Made by a program: the position numbers and the translations under genes. Positions 22,400 through 33,672 of a stretch of 55,349 nt of DNA are shown here, in pieces. The notes beneath the pieces were generated by a model that was not told the DNA's origin, ran no database searches, and saw only the letters and a program-made list of their open reading frames with translations. The DNA comes from Candidatus Heimdallarchaeota archaeon (GTDB taxonomy: Archaea; Asgardarchaeota; Heimdallarchaeia; Hodarchaeales; Hodarchaeaceae). The stretch is taken from assembly GCA_011364965.1 (NCBI GenBank), contig RDOB01000008.1, positions 1 to 55,349 on the forward strand, read 5' to 3'. How positions within the stretch are numbered: the first letter of the stretch is position 1; each line of letters starts with the position of its first letter.

Positions 22400-23432
22400 C
22401 TATTCCAATTTCATTATTGGATATTTAGTATCTAACAATTCTCCAACAATTGATCGAATTTGTTTCTGTGTTTCTTTAATCTCGCTTAAATCGAAGAATT
22501 TACTCATTTCCTTTTCAATTAGAAATTCTGGATCATTTTTACCATCTTCAGAGAGTATTAGGAATATTTCTTTCTCTATCACTCCTCGGGAGAATTTTCC
22601 TCTAATTAAATCAAAAATGATTTCATGAGCGAGCATAATTTCGAGCTGACGTGGAGAGATCCGATTCACGACAGCTTCTGTGAGAACTAAAACAGAAAAA
22701 TTCTCATTAACTCTATTTGAGGAATTCAATGTAAATATAGGAATAACTAAAGGATCAAATCTATTCTCTACGATGGTTTGAAATAGATAACCGTCCACAT
22801 TGATACGGTATTTCTTTGCAATGATTTGGGAATACTCTTTTAAATTGGAATGAATATTTGCGAAGAGCCCTCTTGCACTTTCTTAATTCAGAGAGATATC
22901 GGATCCTTCCTGTCTGATAATTCTCCTCAATTGTACTAGTAGGTATGATCTGTAACCCCATTCGTACTCTCATCCGTAATTGAATCTCTAGCTTCTCCGT
23001 AAAGTCTTCATAGGGAATTACTTCTCTATTTTGCACTCTCACAGGTGGTAATTTTTTTATTTCTGCAAAAGCTAAGATCTCTGATTCCAATGTAGGTTTC
23101 TTTTCACAAAGAATGTACCTTAAAACAGCCCCGAAATATTCCATCCCTGTCTGTAAAGCAAGTGAATCAAAAGACTGGAATACTGGGATCGAAAATACGA
23201 TTATTAAAAAGGTTTGATCATCTTCAGTAAAGATTTTAAAATAAAATGGACTTATTTTCTTATTTTCCCGTTGAATTAAGCCATTTACACCAAAGAATCT
23301 GACTTGGTCAATGACATCCAATAAATCATCACACTGGAGATTCACACGCTCAAATTCAGAGGCCATCCATTCTTCAATGGTTAAGCGAAGTGAAAATAAT
23401 TGGCCAGGGGAGATTTTATCAGATGAACTCAT
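22400..23432 (-). pseudogene. Hypothetical gene split by a +1 frameshift (ORFs 22761..23432 and 22400..22798); degenerate zincin-like motif
   Basis: The downstream frame is open back to TAA at 22885-22883 with protein-like sequence, while the upstream ORF tail looks out of frame; LAHEI motif. Confidence 0.55.
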
Positions 23433-23494: not shown

Positions 23495-24517
23495 CTAATA
23501 CCTCATCCCCGCTTTACGATATGCAACCCAGAAGAGGAAAAGAAATATGCTAAATGCAACTAAGATAGCAGTAGATCGACTTATCTGTTCTAAGGGTCCC
23601 GAGAAGAAGTTAATCGCTTGAAAGATGACTAGAGTAATCCAACCAGATAGACTAGTCGAATCTTTTGAAATTAATCCTTTCCAATACCTCAGAATCAACA
23701 TAAGAATACCTAATATTACTGCAAAGATATGTATCCAGTAAAGAAATATACCAAAAGTAACTTCATAGATAAGATATATTGTTTCCAAAATCAAGAAAGC
23801 GGTAAGGGATGAAATTGTTATCAAGAAAGTTGGTATCTCTACTGATCGGTCAACTTGTTGAGCACCTTCATATATTAAATAAATTACTCCTCCAAAGGTC
23901 GCACAATCCGCCAATATCAATGCAGAGGTATATAATACATCTATTTGATAGTTCCATAAAGTGATTAATTTGAAAAAGAAATCCAATACTCCAGATTGAG
24001 GAGTTGTTAAATTGTAACCGAAAAAGAATCCAATTACCACTAGTAGGGGGAGGGGTAAATATAAACATGTTAGGACCCATGTTTTACGTTTCCGTGAGAT
24101 CAATTTTCCTTCTTCCCGCCACCCCAACAGATAGACAGCGATGAAGTAACCGCCAAATAACGAAATTACTGGTGTAATAAGAGGAAACATGAAAATTATA
24201 CCAACAATGAAGTTGAAACCATAAAAAGCTTTAATTGTTGTTGGTAACCGCCAAACTTCCCTTCCAAAGGTCTCATATGCATCTCCTATTTGATATCTTT
24301 TACCATAAGTCCAGAAAAGAAAAGGAAACGACAGAATAAGAGGCCCAATTCCATATACAAGAATGTCGGATATTATTTTCAGCTCAGGTGTGTCAAAAAA
24401 CCAGATAACCCCTCCCACAAATATAAATGATAATAAATAGAAATAAACTGGGATTAAAAGAAATTGTACAATCACAACTAAGCGGCCGTAATGAATATAG
24501 CTCTCATAATCACTCAA
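23495..24517 (-). CDS. Multi-pass membrane hypothetical protein
   Basis: About 9-10 hydrophobic segments in 340 aa; no recognised motif. Confidence 0.75.
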   Translation of the reverse strand: MSDYESYIHYGRLVVIVQFLLIPVYFYLLSFIFVGGVIWFFDTPELKIISDILVYGIGPLILSFPFLFWTYGKRYQIGDAYETFGREVWRLPTTIKAFYGFNFIVGIIFMFPLITPVISLFGGYFIAVYLLGWREEGKLISRKRKTWVLTCLYLPLPLLVVIGFFFGYNLTTPQSGVLDFFFKLITLWNYQIDVLYTSALILADCATFGGVIYLIYEGAQQVDRSVEIPTFLITISSLTAFLILETIYLIYEVTFGIFLYWIHIFAVILGILMLILRYWKGLISKDSTSLSGWITLVIFQAINFFSGPLEQISRSTAILVAFSIFLFLFWVAYRKAGMRY

Positions 24518-25063: not shown

Positions 25064-26395
25064 TTATACTATCTTAATATACTCGTATGCTCGTCTTTGA
25101 GATTCAAAACCATAATGAATTGTTTGAAAATCTTGTCGAAAATCAGCAATATCCTGAGCAATTTTTTTCGGATCTATATGATCAATTAAAACCTGTTTGA
25201 AAAATTCCGCAATAGTTTCCATTTCCTTTTGTTTCATCCCCAATCGAGTTATTTCTTGAGTACCAATTCGAATGCCACCAGGATTTAGATAATTCCGTTT
25301 CTCAATGACATCCCATGGTAGAAGATTTCTATTTGCTATAATGCTTGCTTTTTCCAACAGCTGTTCAACATCAGCTCCAAGGCCTATAGAATCCTGAAAG
25401 TTACTGATATCTACTAACAATGTATGTGATTCCGTGAAACCCTTGTCGGGACAAACAACTTGGAAACCTCTCTCGTATAGATATTGTCCTAATGCTTTTG
25501 CATTAGTAATAATTTGTTTTGAATAAGCTTCTCCAAATTTTTTAAATTCTGCTGCAGCGACAGCTAATCCAGCTACATGCATGAGATGGTGATTTGATGT
25601 CATTCCAGGAAAAGCGGCTGATTTAATTTTTTCAGCGAGTTCTTCTCTTGAAGCAATGACTATTCCTTTTTGAGGACCAGGAAATGTTTTATGAGTGGAC
25701 ATAGTCATGGTATCCGTACCTTCCCTTAGTGGATCTTGGAACTGTTTTCCTGCAATTAAACCAGCCACATGTGCAGCATCATAATTTATATGAGCTCCAA
25801 CTTCATGTGCAATTTCGGCTAACTCCTTTACAGGATGGGGAAACAGAAACACACTTGCACCAAATTGCACTAGCTTGGGTTTCTTTTCTTGTATAGCTAA
25901 CTTGGCTTTATCAATATCGATATTTAATCCATAACGATCAAATGGTAAATATTGAACATTTAATCGGGCAACTGCTCCTGCTGTACCTCCAATGAATGAT
26001 CCAGTAGAAGCTTTAAGAGGGCCAGAACTGATATGTCCTCCCACAGGGATAGATATCGCCATCATAACATCATTTGCTTGAGTGAACGCTGTATAGACCG
26101 TAAGATTAGCAACAACACCCGAAATAGGACGGGCATCGATGAATGGGGAGTTATAAAGTTCACGTAATAGTTTCAGGCATAATTCTTCTACATCATCAAA
26201 GTATTCATTACCTGGATAGACTCTCTCACCTATCCAACCTTCTGCATATCGATGAGCGAGATCACTTATTGCCAATTCTCGTACAGCAGGACTTGTAAGA
26301 TTTTCACTAGCAATTAATGGTATAGCATTATTCCAATATTTGTGATGCTTTTCCAAAATATTTCTGATTTTAAGAAAATCAGGATCATGTGACAT
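25064..26395 (-). CDS. glyA: Serine hydroxymethyltransferase (archaeal type)
   Basis: LIASEN, RYAEG, YDAAHVAGL, PLP lysine STHKTFPGPQ, GIRIGT. Confidence 0.97.
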   Translation of the reverse strand: MSHDPDFLKIRNILEKHHKYWNNAIPLIASENLTSPAVRELAISDLAHRYAEGWIGERVYPGNEYFDDVEELCLKLLRELYNSPFIDARPISGVVANLTVYTAFTQANDVMMAISIPVGGHISSGPLKASTGSFIGGTAGAVARLNVQYLPFDRYGLNIDIDKAKLAIQEKKPKLVQFGASVFLFPHPVKELAEIAHEVGAHINYDAAHVAGLIAGKQFQDPLREGTDTMTMSTHKTFPGPQKGIVIASREELAEKIKSAAFPGMTSNHHLMHVAGLAVAAAEFKKFGEAYSKQIITNAKALGQYLYERGFQVVCPDKGFTESHTLLVDISNFQDSIGLGADVEQLLEKASIIANRNLLPWDVIEKRNYLNPGGIRIGTQEITRLGMKQKEMETIAEFFKQVLIDHIDPKKIAQDIADFRQDFQTIHYGFESQRRAYEYIKIV

Positions 26396-27788: not shown

Positions 27789-30700
27789 TCACTTCTTTTT
27801 CTTTTTATCTTTCACTGCTTGTCCTTTCTCTCCTGAAATGCCACCTAATTCAGATAAGGCATCGGAGAATAAATCAGCTAAATCTGGAGGATGAACCTGC
27901 TGTTCTGATATAACCTCAGGTTCTTTCACTTCTTTATATTCCACTTCAGGAATAGAGAAAGGCTCTTCCTTAGAAGGTTCATCTTCGGACAATGACTTCG
28001 CTATTGAGGAGAAAGATTCAGGGAGATCTGAACTAAAGAGGCTGGGTTCTTCTTTTTCTTGTCGTCTCCTAATTTCTTCTTTTCGAGAGATAATTTGTTG
28101 AGTATCCGATAATGCTTTCTCCAATACTCCCATATGATCCATTGAAGGAATTTCGGACTTTTTCACGTCTTCTGCGGAGGTGAATGCTTCTAATTTGCTT
28201 AAATCGGGTGTAGTGTCATCAGGTTCATCTATAGGCGTTTCTATTAAAGAATCCTTTTTCCATAATCTTCCAAAACTATCAACTTCCCATTCATCGTCTT
28301 CAGAGACCTCCTTCAGTTCTGGTGCTGTGGTAATCCTTGACTCTATTTTCTCACTTGGTATTGGACTGAAAAGTTGTCGTAATTCGCTTTCTGAAAGCGC
28401 AGCATCCTTACTAGGTTTCATTTCAGGGATTTTTTCTTCAATGTGGGGAACTTCTTCCAATTCTGGTTCTATTGGTAGAACTTCAGGGATTTTTGTTGGA
28501 ACTTGTGGACTCATTGAAAAAAGAGAAGAAATTTCATCGTCAGATAAAGCTGTTTTTACTTCTCCTTTAGTATCTCTAATAGGAATCTCTAATACCTTTT
28601 TTTCTTCTAGAGGTTTGAATTCGTCTTTTGGAACCGTTTTTATCTTTGGAATCGGTTTTATATCGATAGGTTTATCAGGGGAGATAACAGAATCCAATGA
28701 GGGAATTAAAGGTACTTCTATAGATCTTGCTTCAATTTTAGGAGCAGATTCTTGTGTTTCTTCAAATGTTTTAATTACAGAAACAAATTCATCCTCAAAT
28801 TTAGTTTCTGCTGTTTCACTAGCAATATCTGGTGAAGAGGAGGTTGTAACAAGATCTTCCTCTGGAATTAGGGAACTGGTGTCAACCAATTCAGGTTCTT
28901 TTTCAGGTTCAGATATTATTTTTGGCAAAATTGCTGGTGTGGGGATTTCGGGTTCTTCCTTCTCTTCTTCCAAGATTTCTAGTTCAAGAAGACTTACTTG
29001 TTTTTCACGAACAGCCCTCATTCTTTCTAAATTATCGACTACTTTTTTAAATTTCTTAACTTTAATACCTAGGTCATCAATTATCTTGTTTACCTGGTTT
29101 ATGGACTTATTATCTTTAGTACTTTCTGCTTCTTTAAGAAGGAATACTACAATTCCTCCGATATCATTGGTTTTGTTAATCATTGAACTTAATCTAGCTA
29201 AATAGTCTAGATGGGAATAAGCTATAGCTAAGTTATTTGCAACAATTCCTTCTTCAATCAAGAGTTTAACAATATTGAATAATTGGTCTAAATCCTGCAT
29301 TTCTTCATATTTTTCTAAAGTTTGTTGGAAATAGGTTATAGCCTCGGATTCATGGGATTTAATCATAATTTGGGTTAGTTTGAAAAGTAATTCCGATTGA
29401 AACTTCTCTTGATTGTATTTTTTGCATATGTAAATTCCTCTTTTCAGCGCTCGAATTGAATGAATAGGAACTTCAAATTGGTCAGCAAGATTGTTGAACA
29501 CCAGAACAACGCTCTTGAAATCATTCATTGATCGATAAAACTCAGAAGCTTGATATGCATACTCTGATGCTAAATCAGGATTCTCAATAGCAACGAGAAA
29601 AGCAAATTTCTCAGTGACTTTAGCTACTAGAATTTTTCCTTCACTCCCTAGCTTTTCACTCGTACTAACTAATGAAATTACTCGATCAATGAACTCTCGC
29701 GCTCCCTCAATATGACCATGCTCTATAAGCGATTTAATAAAATTAAAAGACATCGGTAGTAGCTCAGAAAAGGGTTTCTGAGTCTTTTCAAGAAGAAGTG
29801 CCATCATCCGAGTAGCAGGAGGAACCTGTTCTAGTTCAATTAATTTATCAGCATATTTGTGGGCTAATTTATCTGCAGTTTCAGTTAATTCCTTGGTATA
29901 AATGGAATCAATGAAATTTATAATATGCATGGGAACTTCTGGAGATATAGTGTCTGTTTCAATAAGAAAGGGGTATACTTTTTCCGAAAAACTAATAATT
30001 TCATCAGTTGTTGGATTTAGAATCTTCAGAATAGCGTCTATCAAGGAAACATCTGGAAAATTCTCGATAACTCCTTCCAAATAGGATTTTGCTAGTTTCT
30101 TGAAATCGCTACGTTTTCCTCGTGTTTCAAGAATATACTTGAAAACATCTAATGCAGCAACTTTATTTGATTCATATGCGATATTAAATACCATTTGAAG
30201 AAATTCAAGTGCCTTATCAGCCTTGTTTTCTTCCTCTAGAAGTTTTCCCATTTCAATAGCGAATTTAGCTGCTGTAGTTGTATCTCCACGTTCTAAAGAA
30301 GATTTAGCATAGTTTTTGACAGCATTTAATGCTTCTTTATATTGTTTATGGCTTTGACCAAATCTAAGTATTAAATCAGTCATTCTAGCTGCATCTTCAT
30401 GTTGATTGTGCTCAATGAATATGTCTCTCATTTTTTCTAAGTATTTAATAACTTGAGAAATATCATCGAGCCTCTCATAATACCGAGCTGTTTGTACACA
30501 ATAAATATAAGCGTCTTGATAACGTCCCGATTGGATTTGCTTATCAATCATTCGAGAAATAACTTCAATTGCCTGTTTGAAATCCTCTTTTGCTTCTAAT
30601 TCTTTTAAAATGGAATCAGTCAGATTTTGTGCCAACTCAACAGAATAGTCGATTAATTGCTTCTGATATGCAATCAAACGTTCCAAAGCTCCTTCAGGAT

Positions 30701-33404
30701 CGTTCATTGCACGATAAGCATCAGCTACCTTGTAAACAAAGGTTTGTACAAGATCGGGTCTTTGCAAAGTGTTCACAATATAATCAATAAATCTACTTAA
30801 TCCGTCTATGGCACGTGTGTGTTCATTTTGTTGTATTTGAAGATTTATCATCTGATCTAGAAGATAAGCAGCCCTATCAACCTCATTTCTTTCCTGTAAA
30901 TTATTAACAAATTCACGCAACAAATTAAAATCAATGTATGCAGATTGAATCATCAAGCTAGTGGTATATTTCATATACTCAAAGACCATATCAGATTGAT
31001 TATATGCAAGTAACTTATCTATAAAGTTTTTACAAAATCTCAAAACATCCTTAATTTTCTTTTCATTCAATAATCGAGTTAATTCTAAATTTACCATTTC
31101 CTGCGCTGTTAGCACTGTATTTGTCGAAAGAAGATCATCCACATACTGTAATACGATTTTTTCACGCTTTTTTTGGTCTGTTATTCTCTGTAAAGCTGTT
31201 TGTATGAAGGATTTCGCTCTATCACGCATCCCGAGTTTTCCAAATAGATCACCGAGGGCTAACTGCTTTTCTATTCTTTTGGATTCATCATCTTGATATG
31301 CCTTCTCGATCAAGCTTTCAACAAATTTCAAATAATCGCGAGCAGCATTTGACTCTTCAAGATCTGTGAGTCCCTGAACAATCGATAAACTAAACTCAAC
31401 AGCTTCATCTATTAAAGCAAGATCATAAAATAACTTAATCGCGCGATTACCAAACTCACATGCTTTTGTATAATTTTCTTTATCCATAAGGAAACTAGAA
31501 CTCTGTTTTGCAACATCTAGAGCCAATTTGTTGTTATTTTGGGTTTCAGCAGTAAGAATCAGCCTCTCTGCATATTTTGAATAATTTACTTTATAATTAG
31601 TAGTTCTAAATAAGCCTAAAATATCTTCAAGAGAGGTAATGAGATCAAATTGGGCTTTTTTCTCTTCCTGAACCTCAAACGCTTGATCTAGCATAAATTC
31701 AATGTCATCTTCGAAAGATTCCCGCTCTTGGGGAGAAAATTGCCCTTCTTTCACCTCTGAAAGAATTTGAACACCATAACGAGCGAATCTTAAGGCATTT
31801 TCCCACAATACTACTGGTAAACGAGCTTTCCTATAATATTCAATTTGTCGTCGTGCAAGCATTAAGACTGTAGATAATTTATTTTCATCTTTTGATAACA
31901 AGTATTGGTCTAATAGTAAACCTGCAAGATTAGCAGCATTCAAATATTTTTCTTCATTAATATAAACATCTAAAGAATCCATTACGAAAGCTAGAGCCAT
32001 ATCTAAATCTAAACCAATAAGCTCTTCAGTAAGTTCAGTTCTCATTTTTACAGCTTGGGAAGATTTATTCCGTTCCTCAAGATAATAAATAAGCTTTTTA
32101 CCGAATTGCAAAACTCCTTTTGCATTTTCCTCATTTCTAAATCTCTTAAGTAAAACCTCTGTGATTTTTGCAGCAGCTTTCAGATTCTTCTGCTGCTCAT
32201 AATCTTCTATAACTTTTAAGAAATGACCAACAGCCACATTTGATATCATATCATCCATAGGTTTCAAAGAAAGTTGTTCTAACATTTTTAATATCTTTTC
32301 AGAGGCATCATATAAATAGCTAAAAGATATTTGGGGCACAGCCTGATTTATTGCCCGTGCTATTTCATCTTGATCATATTTTACCTTAAAAAGCTCACTA
32401 AAGGAATTATTTGCAAGTTTAAAACGAATAAACCAATCATCAAACTTCCTTAATATAATACACATTATTCCCCCAGTTTTCTCTAATTCAATTTCTCTTA
32501 CTGGAAGTGGTTGACCTTCACTTACAAATTCTTTAACTTTCTCTAAAAATTTATCGAAATCTTCAGCTTTTGTATATCCAGAAACATCTAATGCTGATAA
32601 ATCTATCATTGCGGCCTCAGGACTTGGTTCAGTTTCAATTGGAAATAAATCAGTTTCAATTGGAACACTACTGTCGGTTTTTTGGAGAGGAACATCAACT
32701 TCAGGTTTCTCAATAAAATCCTCTGGATGTAGAATAATCTTTTCAATCTCTTCTGCAGTATCATATATGGCTGAAAAGGACAAGAAATCAATACCAGACT
32801 CACTAATCATTGTAACGACTGAATCTTGGTCGATGGATTCTTTTTTGAAAATTTTTCGAATAATAGGAGTGCTGTGATGGAAAAGGACAACTGCATAACA
32901 ACCATCCTTAGTATAATAGACTCCTGCAACGCCATTTTGAGAATAAGGCATCTCAAATCTTTTTAATAATTTATCTCCTTTATCTATAGTTACCATCGCT
33001 GTAGAAACAGTCTGGGGTTCCGTTTCTATTAAATCTTCTGCATCAAAAAACGTTTCAGTAGGTTTCTCTTCCGAACCAATATAGTCTTGCTCAGGTATGT
33101 ATTCATCGCCCTTAGGTTCCTCTATAATGAGTTTCTCTTCAAATTCCTCTCTTATCGTATGGATAAGTAAATCCGCAACGTCGAAAATTGCAGAAAAACT
33201 AAAGAACTCGACTCCTGCATCACTTAGTAAATCAACCATCTTATCCTGATTCAACTGGTTCCGTGGAATGGTATTAACTCTTATCTTTCGATCATTTTGA
33301 AAGAACGTAATAACATAATCGTTAATACTCTCTCTTATTGCACATTCTACACTGCTTGTAGACGGAAGCTCAATTCGAACCTCTTTCTCTTCACGAGTAG
33401 CCAT
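27789..33404 (-). CDS. Giant hypothetical protein: three N-terminal repeat domains, TPR/SNAP-like alpha-solenoid, acidic disordered tail
   Basis: 1871-aa uninterrupted ORF; repeats ending in SFSAIFD, SFSAIYD and SFSYLYD; about 1100 aa of paired amphipathic helices; E/P/S/D-rich C-terminus. Confidence 0.8.
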   Translation of the reverse strand: MATREEKEVRIELPSTSSVECAIRESINDYVITFFQNDRKIRVNTIPRNQLNQDKMVDLLSDAGVEFFSFSAIFDVADLLIHTIREEFEEKLIIEEPKGDEYIPEQDYIGSEEKPTETFFDAEDLIETEPQTVSTAMVTIDKGDKLLKRFEMPYSQNGVAGVYYTKDGCYAVVLFHHSTPIIRKIFKKESIDQDSVVTMISESGIDFLSFSAIYDTAEEIEKIILHPEDFIEKPEVDVPLQKTDSSVPIETDLFPIETEPSPEAAMIDLSALDVSGYTKAEDFDKFLEKVKEFVSEGQPLPVREIELEKTGGIMCIILRKFDDWFIRFKLANNSFSELFKVKYDQDEIARAINQAVPQISFSYLYDASEKILKMLEQLSLKPMDDMISNVAVGHFLKVIEDYEQQKNLKAAAKITEVLLKRFRNEENAKGVLQFGKKLIYYLEERNKSSQAVKMRTELTEELIGLDLDMALAFVMDSLDVYINEEKYLNAANLAGLLLDQYLLSKDENKLSTVLMLARRQIEYYRKARLPVVLWENALRFARYGVQILSEVKEGQFSPQERESFEDDIEFMLDQAFEVQEEKKAQFDLITSLEDILGLFRTTNYKVNYSKYAERLILTAETQNNNKLALDVAKQSSSFLMDKENYTKACEFGNRAIKLFYDLALIDEAVEFSLSIVQGLTDLEESNAARDYLKFVESLIEKAYQDDESKRIEKQLALGDLFGKLGMRDRAKSFIQTALQRITDQKKREKIVLQYVDDLLSTNTVLTAQEMVNLELTRLLNEKKIKDVLRFCKNFIDKLLAYNQSDMVFEYMKYTTSLMIQSAYIDFNLLREFVNNLQERNEVDRAAYLLDQMINLQIQQNEHTRAIDGLSRFIDYIVNTLQRPDLVQTFVYKVADAYRAMNDPEGALERLIAYQKQLIDYSVELAQNLTDSILKELEAKEDFKQAIEVISRMIDKQIQSGRYQDAYIYCVQTARYYERLDDISQVIKYLEKMRDIFIEHNQHEDAARMTDLILRFGQSHKQYKEALNAVKNYAKSSLERGDTTTAAKFAIEMGKLLEEENKADKALEFLQMVFNIAYESNKVAALDVFKYILETRGKRSDFKKLAKSYLEGVIENFPDVSLIDAILKILNPTTDEIISFSEKVYPFLIETDTISPEVPMHIINFIDSIYTKELTETADKLAHKYADKLIELEQVPPATRMMALLLEKTQKPFSELLPMSFNFIKSLIEHGHIEGAREFIDRVISLVSTSEKLGSEGKILVAKVTEKFAFLVAIENPDLASEYAYQASEFYRSMNDFKSVVLVFNNLADQFEVPIHSIRALKRGIYICKKYNQEKFQSELLFKLTQIMIKSHESEAITYFQQTLEKYEEMQDLDQLFNIVKLLIEEGIVANNLAIAYSHLDYLARLSSMINKTNDIGGIVVFLLKEAESTKDNKSINQVNKIIDDLGIKVKKFKKVVDNLERMRAVREKQVSLLELEILEEEKEEPEIPTPAILPKIISEPEKEPELVDTSSLIPEEDLVTTSSSPDIASETAETKFEDEFVSVIKTFEETQESAPKIEARSIEVPLIPSLDSVISPDKPIDIKPIPKIKTVPKDEFKPLEEKKVLEIPIRDTKGEVKTALSDDEISSLFSMSPQVPTKIPEVLPIEPELEEVPHIEEKIPEMKPSKDAALSESELRQLFSPIPSEKIESRITTAPELKEVSEDDEWEVDSFGRLWKKDSLIETPIDEPDDTTPDLSKLEAFTSAEDVKKSEIPSMDHMGVLEKALSDTQQIISRKEEIRRRQEKEEPSLFSSDLPESFSSIAKSLSEDEPSKEEPFSIPEVEYKEVKEPEVISEQQVHPPDLADLFSDALSELGGISGEKGQAVKDKKKKK

Positions 33405-33672
33405 TAAAATCCCTTAAGATCGCAAGCTGATGAGATGAAGCATTATTTTCATTTATATTGAAAATGCTCTATAATAAAGTGCACTTTCTCAGTTGTCTTA
33501 TGAGATATTGCTCTTCATAAATACTTCTTTATAATAATAAAAAGCAATTCATTTGCTTGAATTGTTTGCTTTTCCGACAAAAATATCACAATAGTGCTAC
33601 ATATCGTATTAAAAGGATTATCACTCTTAATTTCATTGTAGAAAAAAAAATCAGTCCCAAAAGTACATAAAA

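Follow-up and report, generated by a model that had tools for sequence, protein, structure and literature searches.

What kind of protein is encoded by a gene of 1871 codons that resembles no catalogued family is the question raised by the 55,349-nucleotide stretch of contig RDOB01000008.1 (Candidatus Heimdallarchaeota archaeon of the Hodarchaeaceae, assembly GCA_011364965.1) that was analysed in this study and is referred to below as the window. The gene is a single intact open reading frame (ORF) that runs from ATG to TGA on the minus strand, and it has one copy in its own genome (2.97 Mb, 16 contigs, 87% complete). Its start codon is supported by a conserved N-terminus in which M1 and T3 are invariant in 30 orthologues. 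The product (P0001; its family alignment is A1) consists of three small head domains on acidic linkers, a giant α-solenoid of the tetratricopeptide repeat (TPR) type and an acidic tail with conserved short motifs. We consider it fairly probable that this protein is a soluble, non-enzymatic, multivalent interaction scaffold that is confined to a few lineages of the Asgard archaea. Searches of the whole protein against Pfam, NCBIfam and the PDB sequences gave nothing above the cut-offs, no enzyme family was detected in Pfam or NCBIfam, and no paper describing the family was found in the literature. No transmembrane segment is indicated, since the highest Kyte-Doolittle mean over 19 residues was 1.53, and neither signal features nor coiled-coil or oligomerisation signatures were found in the protein, the isoelectric point (pI) of which is 4.75.

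The three heads are homologous to one another as was shown using hhalign, which gave probabilities of 98.7 for R1 and R2 and of 93.5 and 88.5 for the other pairs (E 2e-16 to 3e-6). In the AlphaFold2 model, each of them folds as β4-α2 with a predicted local distance difference test (pLDDT) score of 85–92, while the linker stretches at residues 91–137 and 233–264 fall below 50. The third head, R3, continues directly into the solenoid and is the copy that is retained in all of the distant homologues. This head is an undescribed small domain without a convincing structural relative. It has no Pfam model, and a Foldseek search using the model of residues 1–400 gave nothing at E < 1e-3 in the PDB; what it returned from the PDB and BFVD were tail fibres and polo boxes, which were rejected as spurious global alignments. 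The ESM Atlas feature search gave no usable match, and the Atlas shape search produced two leads: an Asgard Zn-ribbon protein of 218 aa, of which 91 aa were aligned at a root-mean-square deviation (rmsd) of 3.0, and a 100-aa phage protein with a template modelling (TM) score of 0.64. The PH-like domains (RanBD, Rpn13 Pru, EVH1 and NECAP PHear) differ from the head in having seven strands instead of four strands and two helices.

The solenoid comprises about 1060 aa (residues ~384–1445) with 54 helices of approximately 17 aa that form about 27 hairpins, and its mean pLDDT is 88.3. Stacked helix-turn-helix hairpins of about 34 aa, which define the TPR clan structurally (Pfam CL0020), are present in the model, and Foldseek assigned it a probability of 1.0 to many TPR proteins. 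Among the Pfam models, TPR_6 scored 17.6–23.1 bits in the window protein against a cut-off of 26.3, TPR_14 gave sub-threshold matches in 13 of the 30 orthologues, and in the relative P0051, TPR_12 reached 43.1 bits against a cut-off of 30.1. Foldseek ranked Ski3/TTC37 (4buj_B, 9g8r_B), the TPR subunit of IFT-A (8bbg_D, 8fgw_D) and Ctr9 (6af0_A) highest (E 1e-10 to 1e-8); these share with the window protein an uninterrupted TPR-type superhelix of about 1000 aa and, on the reading proposed here, the role of a non-enzymatic platform. However, the TM-scores to these proteins were only 0.11–0.16 at 11–13% identity and an rmsd above 30 Å, and they carry neither β4-α2 heads nor a motif tail. Moreover, a phmmer search for homology to Ski3/TTC37, IFT139/TTC21B and Ctr9 among the PDB sequences found nothing at E < 0.1. 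The TM-scores to eukaryotic scaffolds were generally 0.1–0.2, and the top matches of VIA, which is independent of Foldseek, lay within one Z unit of each other, a level that the tool calls typical for helical repeats. The TPR domains of Pins/LGN and kinesin light chain (4a1s, 4wng, 3zfw) are shorter, with 8–11 repeats, and their match is generic. The fold matches are at the level of noise, and the TPR models that hit the window protein and its orthologues are sub-threshold; the solenoid can thus be assigned to the TPR type and to nothing more specific.

The tail of 426 aa contains 23.8% D+E, 9.3% P and 11% S and has a net charge of −43; judging from its composition and conservation, it is presumably disordered. 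Its mean column identity is 0.44 compared to 0.69–0.75 in the folded domains. Within it lie six short motif islands whose conservation equals that of the folded domains, two of which, M3 (0.89) and M6 (0.87), exceed them. In the Hodarchaeales, the M6 consensus is PPDLADLFSDALSELGxISGE followed by poly-K, and its core, [DN]-x-F-[SD]-x-A-L-x-[ED]-L with a polybasic terminus, is kept in members that are elsewhere less than 25% identical (P0049, P0087, P0074, P0076 and P0079), which is why the LFSxALxEL helix with its polybasic end is the oldest element of the tail. A scan with strict regular expressions found the tail motifs in no other gene of the own genome. By eye, some of the islands recall the MIM1, FFAT, LIR, gamma-ear (FGxPhi) and WH2/VCA motifs, all of which were rejected as none fits its consensus well enough. 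In the VCA module of the WASP family, which has a WH2 helix with LKK[TV] and a central helix, the acidic Trp motif that binds Arp2/3 stands at the extreme C-terminus; in the window protein, the DDEW at residues 1703–1706 lies 165 residues before the C-terminus, and no LKK[TV] was seen by eye after M1 or M2. The motif scan also drew attention to a 307-aa open frame on contig C9 of the own genome with an extreme acidic, Trp-containing C-terminus, ...EDWDEEDEEFEDWDDDDE; its position, 282233, is a frame offset and not an exact coordinate. The coordinates of all of these parts are collected in the table. A preliminary description that had been made from the letters of the window alone had outlined an 1871-aa protein with three homologous globular repeats on acidic linkers, about 1100 aa of TPR-like helical pairs and an acidic tail of about 400 aa with motifs and a lysine-rich end (given there as KDKKKK; the protein ends in KDKKKKK), without a transmembrane segment, signal peptide or enzyme motif, and the profiles and models bear out each part of this outline.

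Table. Positions of the parts of the 1871-aa gene in the window and of related head and helical proteins at other loci.
Feature	Position	Strand	Basis or remark
Whole gene, 1871 aa + stop	27789..33404	-	N-terminus MATREEK conserved in orthologues
Head domain R1, residues 5-92	33129..33392	-	AlphaFold2 pLDDT ~88-92; profile A4 E 3.7e-30
Acidic disordered linker 1, residues 93-140	32985..33128	-	pLDDT <50; mean column identity 0.33
Head domain R2, residues 141-230	32715..32984	-	profile A4 E 5.2e-31
Acidic disordered linker 2, residues 231-270	32595..32714	-	pLDDT <50 over 233-264; mean column identity 0.39
Helix alpha0 (about 280-296) and head R3 (296-382)	32250..32594	-	AlphaFold2 model, hhalign, profile A4
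TPR-type alpha-solenoid, residues 386-1445	29070..32249	-	AlphaFold2 pLDDT 88.3; Foldseek, VIA, sub-threshold Pfam
Acidic low-complexity tail, residues 1446-1871	27792..29069	-	composition, conservation
M1, ALSDDEISSLFS, residues 1619-1630	28515..28550	-	L, E, L, F invariant in 30 orthologues
M2, ALSESELRQLFS, residues 1669-1680, duplicate of M1	28365..28400	-	orthologue alignment
M3, DDEWEVDSFGRLWKK, residues 1703-1718, acidic Trp/Phe island	28251..28298	-	W, D, F, G, R, L invariant
M4, TPDLSxLE, residues 1731-1740	28185..28214	-	P, D invariant
M5, F-x-[IV]-P-E-V-x-Y-x-E-[IV], residues 1815-1826	27927..27962	-	P, V, Y invariant
M6, PPDLADLFSDALSELGGISGE then KDKKKKK, residues 1838-1871	27792..27893	-	column identity 0.87
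Free head	L023:6583-6930	-	profile A4
Free head	L024:6751-7110	+	profile A4
Free head	L025:6422-6739	-	profile A4
Free head	L026:6303-6602	+	profile A4
Free head	L027:6820-7110	+	profile A4
~1160-aa neighbour of free head (A6)	L025:6924-10409	+	
~1160-aa neighbour of free head (A6)	L023:7074-10568	+	
~1160-aa neighbour of free head (A6)	L024:2979-6611	-	
~1160-aa neighbour of free head (A6)	L026:2625-6104	-	
Ras-like domain fused to one head (P0092)	L031:2713-3576		metagenomic

The family is restricted to a few Asgard lineages and extends beyond the Hodarchaeales. We collected 48 full-length or partial homologues of about 1800–1880 aa with 43–58% identity; those with a label are mostly assigned to Hodarchaeales, Hodarchaeota or Heimdallarchaeota, and a few to Thorarchaeota or Promethearchaeota. 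Searches of whole genomes, which covered up to 400 Asgard genomes, found the family in each of the 21 further genomes of the genus, in both genomes of the second family of the same order, in five of five genomes of family f20 (Candidatus Borrarchaeum / Sifarchaeia by their source names) and in the single f22 genome. Three families of the same class had no match (f3, 0/31; f4, 0/12; f7, 0/12), and marginal head matches (E about 3e-3) in f10 and in the two largest families, f11 (one) and f14 (one among 135 genomes), were rejected as chance. A profile of a single head (A4) that was run using HMMER over 1.84 billion representative proteins at E <= 1e-3 hit only 38 clusters. The labelled ones are all from Asgard archaea, i.e., Heimdallarchaeota LC_3 (P0070), Hodarchaeales, Hermodarchaeota (P0087) and Sifarchaeia/Borrarchaeum; P0089, an Ig-like surface protein from a bacterium that the profile hit in 12 partial stretches, was dismissed as a false positive. 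The earlier proposal of a candidate component of an undescribed system is thus not refuted, as the searches of Pfam, NCBIfam, the PDB sequences and the fold databases gave no characterised family that corresponds to the protein over its whole length, and it is not widespread in bacteria or in archaea outside of the Asgard group.

Orthologues with 43–58% identity keep the full length in every sampled genome of the genus and the order. Across the whole family, the invariant core consists of the solenoid, the head next to it (R3) and the conserved helix; the Borrarchaeum homologues at first aligned to profile columns 262–407 only. The number of heads varies from one to six: two in P0051 (f22), three in the Hodarchaeales and Borrarchaeum, four in P0049 and P0074, five in P0070, P0072 and P0076 and six in P0071. 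The tail is equally variable. It is long and acidic in the Hodarchaeales, P0049, P0074, P0076 and P0079, short and basic in P0051, and absent in Borrarchaeum, in which P0050 ends at the solenoid. The tail profile A5 found nothing in five genomes from f2, Borrarchaeum and f22, a set that held no positive control, and the f2 copy that was fetched is cut by a contig end.

The head also occurs apart from the giant protein. A free-standing head ORF of about 95–105 aa was found with profile A4 in 14 of the 21 genomes of the genus; its alignment (A7) matches the family head with an hhalign probability of 97.7 (E 1.6e-12), and the free head also hits R1 in the window gene (E 2e-9). Its C-terminus is basic, KHFKKKGLLRRLLGK. 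In the assembled 87% of the own genome, it was not found. At four of the five loci that were fetched, the free head is divergently oriented and adjoins a helical protein of about 1160 aa, which has a sub-threshold TPR_12 match and a C-terminus of ...AFGDLFDGLLDDMTSLMDP...KKRKKR, i.e., an acidic DLF-type helix and a polybasic end that resemble the C-terminus of the window protein. Head and solenoid are linked by a pattern in which they are fused in one protein and neighbours in another setting. A 1296-aa helical ORF on contig C15 of the own genome (C15:31739-35629, minus strand, partly L028) ends in ...IDDQIDEMLDFMDKKK, an acidic helix and then KKK, which suggests that several giant helical proteins carry a common C-terminal module. 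Additionally, in three metagenomic clusters of about 290–307 aa (P0092, P0093 and P0100), an N-terminal Ras-family domain (Pfam Ras 41.5 bits, cut-off 21.6) is fused to one head (E 1.6e-7 to 4e-4 over the 1.84 billion proteins). Because its P-loop, DxxG and NKxD motifs are lost when inspected by eye, this domain would be a Rab-like pseudo-GTPase. It is closest to small GTPases of the Hodarchaeales at 33–38% identity, and a search with P0093 over the 400 Asgard genomes found only ordinary small GTPases and no fusion. As it is found both free-standing and fused to putative pseudo-GTPases, the head is a mobile module, and these settings tie it to giant helical proteins and, less closely, to the biology of small GTPases.

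The architecture, conservation and distribution described above are the observed side of the scaffold reading, and on its other side, each of the binding steps is something that we infer. In analogy with other long TPR proteins, the solenoid, a rigid superhelix, would be a structural platform with extended binding grooves. The heads, which sit on flexible linkers, could provide avidity for a repeated or oligomeric ligand, and the tail motifs may serve as short linear docking sites that recruit partner proteins. At the C-terminus, LFSxALxEL would form an acidic amphipathic helix, while the poly-Lys end might hold the terminus on an anionic surface, for which a membrane, a nucleic acid or an acidic protein are candidates. 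Several points weigh against a scaffold. "Scaffold" is the default reading for long TPR proteins. The motif tail is missing in the Sifarchaeial and f22 homologues, and the core function therefore does not need it. The QD and SFSxxxD motifs that are invariant in the heads lie at helix caps and in the core and may be structural rather than ligand sites. The pairing of free heads with helical neighbours was seen within one genus only, and the homology of these neighbours (A6) to the solenoid of A1 was not significant (hhalign probability 3.8, BLAST E 0.15). Moreover, the genomic context is metabolic and uninformative as to function.

A bolder version of the scaffold can be formulated, in which the protein would be an eukaryote-style adaptor that was invented by the Asgard archaea: a rigid solenoid with tethered receptor-like heads and a disordered tail of short linear motifs (SLiMs), namely LFSxALxEL-polyK, the acidic W/F island and the duplicated LSxxExxxLF, that recruits the cytoskeletal, ESCRT (endosomal sorting complex required for transport) or small-GTPase machinery. 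The head would then be a new GTPase-associated module, as is hinted at by its fusion to the Rab-like pseudo-GTPases. We regard this version as speculative and unlikely. It seems distinctly unlikely that the protein is a eukaryote-like trafficking component, i.e., a coat, tether, SNAP-like protein or adaptor, by homology or by equivalence, with a tail that recruits ESCRT, actin or GTPase machinery to membranes. The combination of a solenoid and a motif tail does resemble the adaptors of coats and of endocytosis, binding to membranes could be mediated by the polybasic terminus, and the host, a member of the Hodarchaeales, has genes for actin and Vps4/MIT. Protocoatomer coats (clathrin, COPI/COPII, Nup scaffolds and HOPS/CORVET) were nonetheless rejected because the N-terminus has three β4-α2 domains and not a β-propeller; no WD40 or clathrin Pfam model matched the window protein, and the TM-score of the clathrin heavy chain (1xi4_A) to the solenoid is only 0.13. 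The SNAP family (gamma-SNAP 2ifu; PF14938), the fold of which is a nine-helix twisted sheet with a C-terminal globular bundle, may share the twisted sheet of TPR-like hairpins with the window protein, but SNAPs have about 290 aa and a C-terminal bundle that engages NSF. The six-head relative P0071 passes the PF14938 cut-off (42.8 bits compared to 25), yet this score sums weak repeats without an individually significant stretch, and neither the window protein nor its 30 orthologues match PF14938 (E <= 0.01). The region concerned in P0071, residues 1493–1593, lies roughly where the preliminary description had placed an α-SNAP-like segment, as a rough position without an alignment. Neither ESCRT nor GTPase nor actin genes are linked to the gene, and the family was not found in most of the Asgard lineages that have such eukaryote-like systems (no credible match among the 135 f14 genomes and none in f3). 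Of what had been proposed at the outset, the TPR character and the non-enzymatic cytosolic design of repeats, solenoid and tail therefore hold, while a kinship to eukaryotic coats, tethers or adaptors is not supported, with TM-scores of 0.1–0.2 and heads that are no propellers; the fold searches, among them the suggested Foldseek comparison, revealed no specific relation, only generic long TPR scaffolds (Ski3, IFT-A, Ctr9 and gamma-SNAP) at the level of noise.

Still less probable is a platform linked to small GTPases, in which the heads would bind or regulate GTPases in the functional manner of roadblock and longin domains and the whole protein would be an effector or regulator hub. The three Ras-head fusions and the affinity of their GTPase part to Hodarchaeales GTPases speak for it, but the fused domains are putative pseudo-GTPases, and the fusion, the source of which is unbinned contigs, is rare and did not turn up in the 400 Asgard genomes. 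Furthermore, neither roadblock nor longin chains are among the top VIA fold matches, and no GTPase gene adjoins the window gene. A scaffold for RNA or ribonucleoprotein processing, analogous to Ski3, Ctr9, CstF77 and the HAT-repeat proteins and with heads that bind nucleic acids as PUR, PC4 or Whirly do, would explain why Ski3 and Ctr9 are top Foldseek matches and why many of the VIA matches are HAT/TPR RNA-processing proteins, and the poly-Lys end could bind RNA. We find it very improbable, since all of these fold matches are at the level of noise, no RNA-processing genes lie nearby, and the acidic heads (net charges of −8, −5 and −1), which differ in this from the β4-α repeats of PUR and PC4, together with the low pI make nucleic-acid binding unfavourable. 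The least probable is a self-assembling lattice or filament-associated element, in which the tail motifs of one molecule would dock on the heads or the solenoid of another. The TPRs of kinesin light chain are established binders of W-acidic as well as LFP-acidic peptides, both in cis and in trans, and one such structure (3zfw) is among the VIA matches; the protein has three heads and three LF[ST]-type motifs (M1, M2 and M6), and by eye, members with more heads tend to have more of these motifs. On the other hand, there are homologues with heads but without a motif tail, and coiled-coil or oligomerisation signatures are lacking. A predicted complex of head (A2) and tail (A5) gave no answer, with a score of 0.00, and is neutral on head-tail binding.

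The surroundings of the gene can be described briefly. Upstream lies an AT-rich intergenic region of 268 bp (33405–33672), a T-rich run follows just after the stop codon, and the downstream gene, GcvT, is convergent, for which reason the 1871-aa gene appears monocistronic. The neighbours are metabolic (GcvT, SHMT, a cyclase-family protein, CCG/Fe-S proteins and peptidases), and no ESCRT, GTPase, actin or RNA-processing gene stands beside the gene in its own neighbourhood. Within the genus, there is general collinearity, with a convergent GcvT downstream in every case and a variable upstream side. In a soil metatranscriptome (run X20), two contigs of about 200 nt that are at least 99% identical fall inside the gene (28791–29032 and 30464–30660) and one falls within SHMT (25347–25599), which is a weak hint of transcription in situ because DNA carry-over is possible in this data set. 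A 341-aa antisense ORF (28180–29205, plus strand) overlaps the region encoding the tail and most probably arises as an artefact, since the acidic codons of the coding strand are rich in GA. Elsewhere in the window, two minus-strand genes without a Pfam match, of 223 aa (22761–23432) and 340 aa (23495–24517), are syntenic across the Hodarchaeales genomes with 58–71% identity.

What is known about this protein is its fold class, TPR; what is new is an Asgard-restricted family that joins an undescribed domain and a SLiM-rich tail, encoded by one of the largest and best-conserved orphan genes in the Hodarchaeales. Among the archaea, the Hodarchaeales are a candidate for the group most closely related to eukaryotes. 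A disordered tail whose short linear motifs are strongly conserved is characteristic of eukaryotic adaptors and hubs and uncommon in prokaryotes. Should the protein turn out to be no more than a TPR scaffold of particular lineages and its partners mundane, it would be of interest to specialists. Hodarchaeales are in culture and their proteomes are available (10.1101/2025.02.26.640444), and the partners of the protein are therefore directly searchable. By uniting a tail of this kind, a TPR platform of giant size and a small domain that is new, the family offers a concrete handle on the organisation of the Asgard cell.

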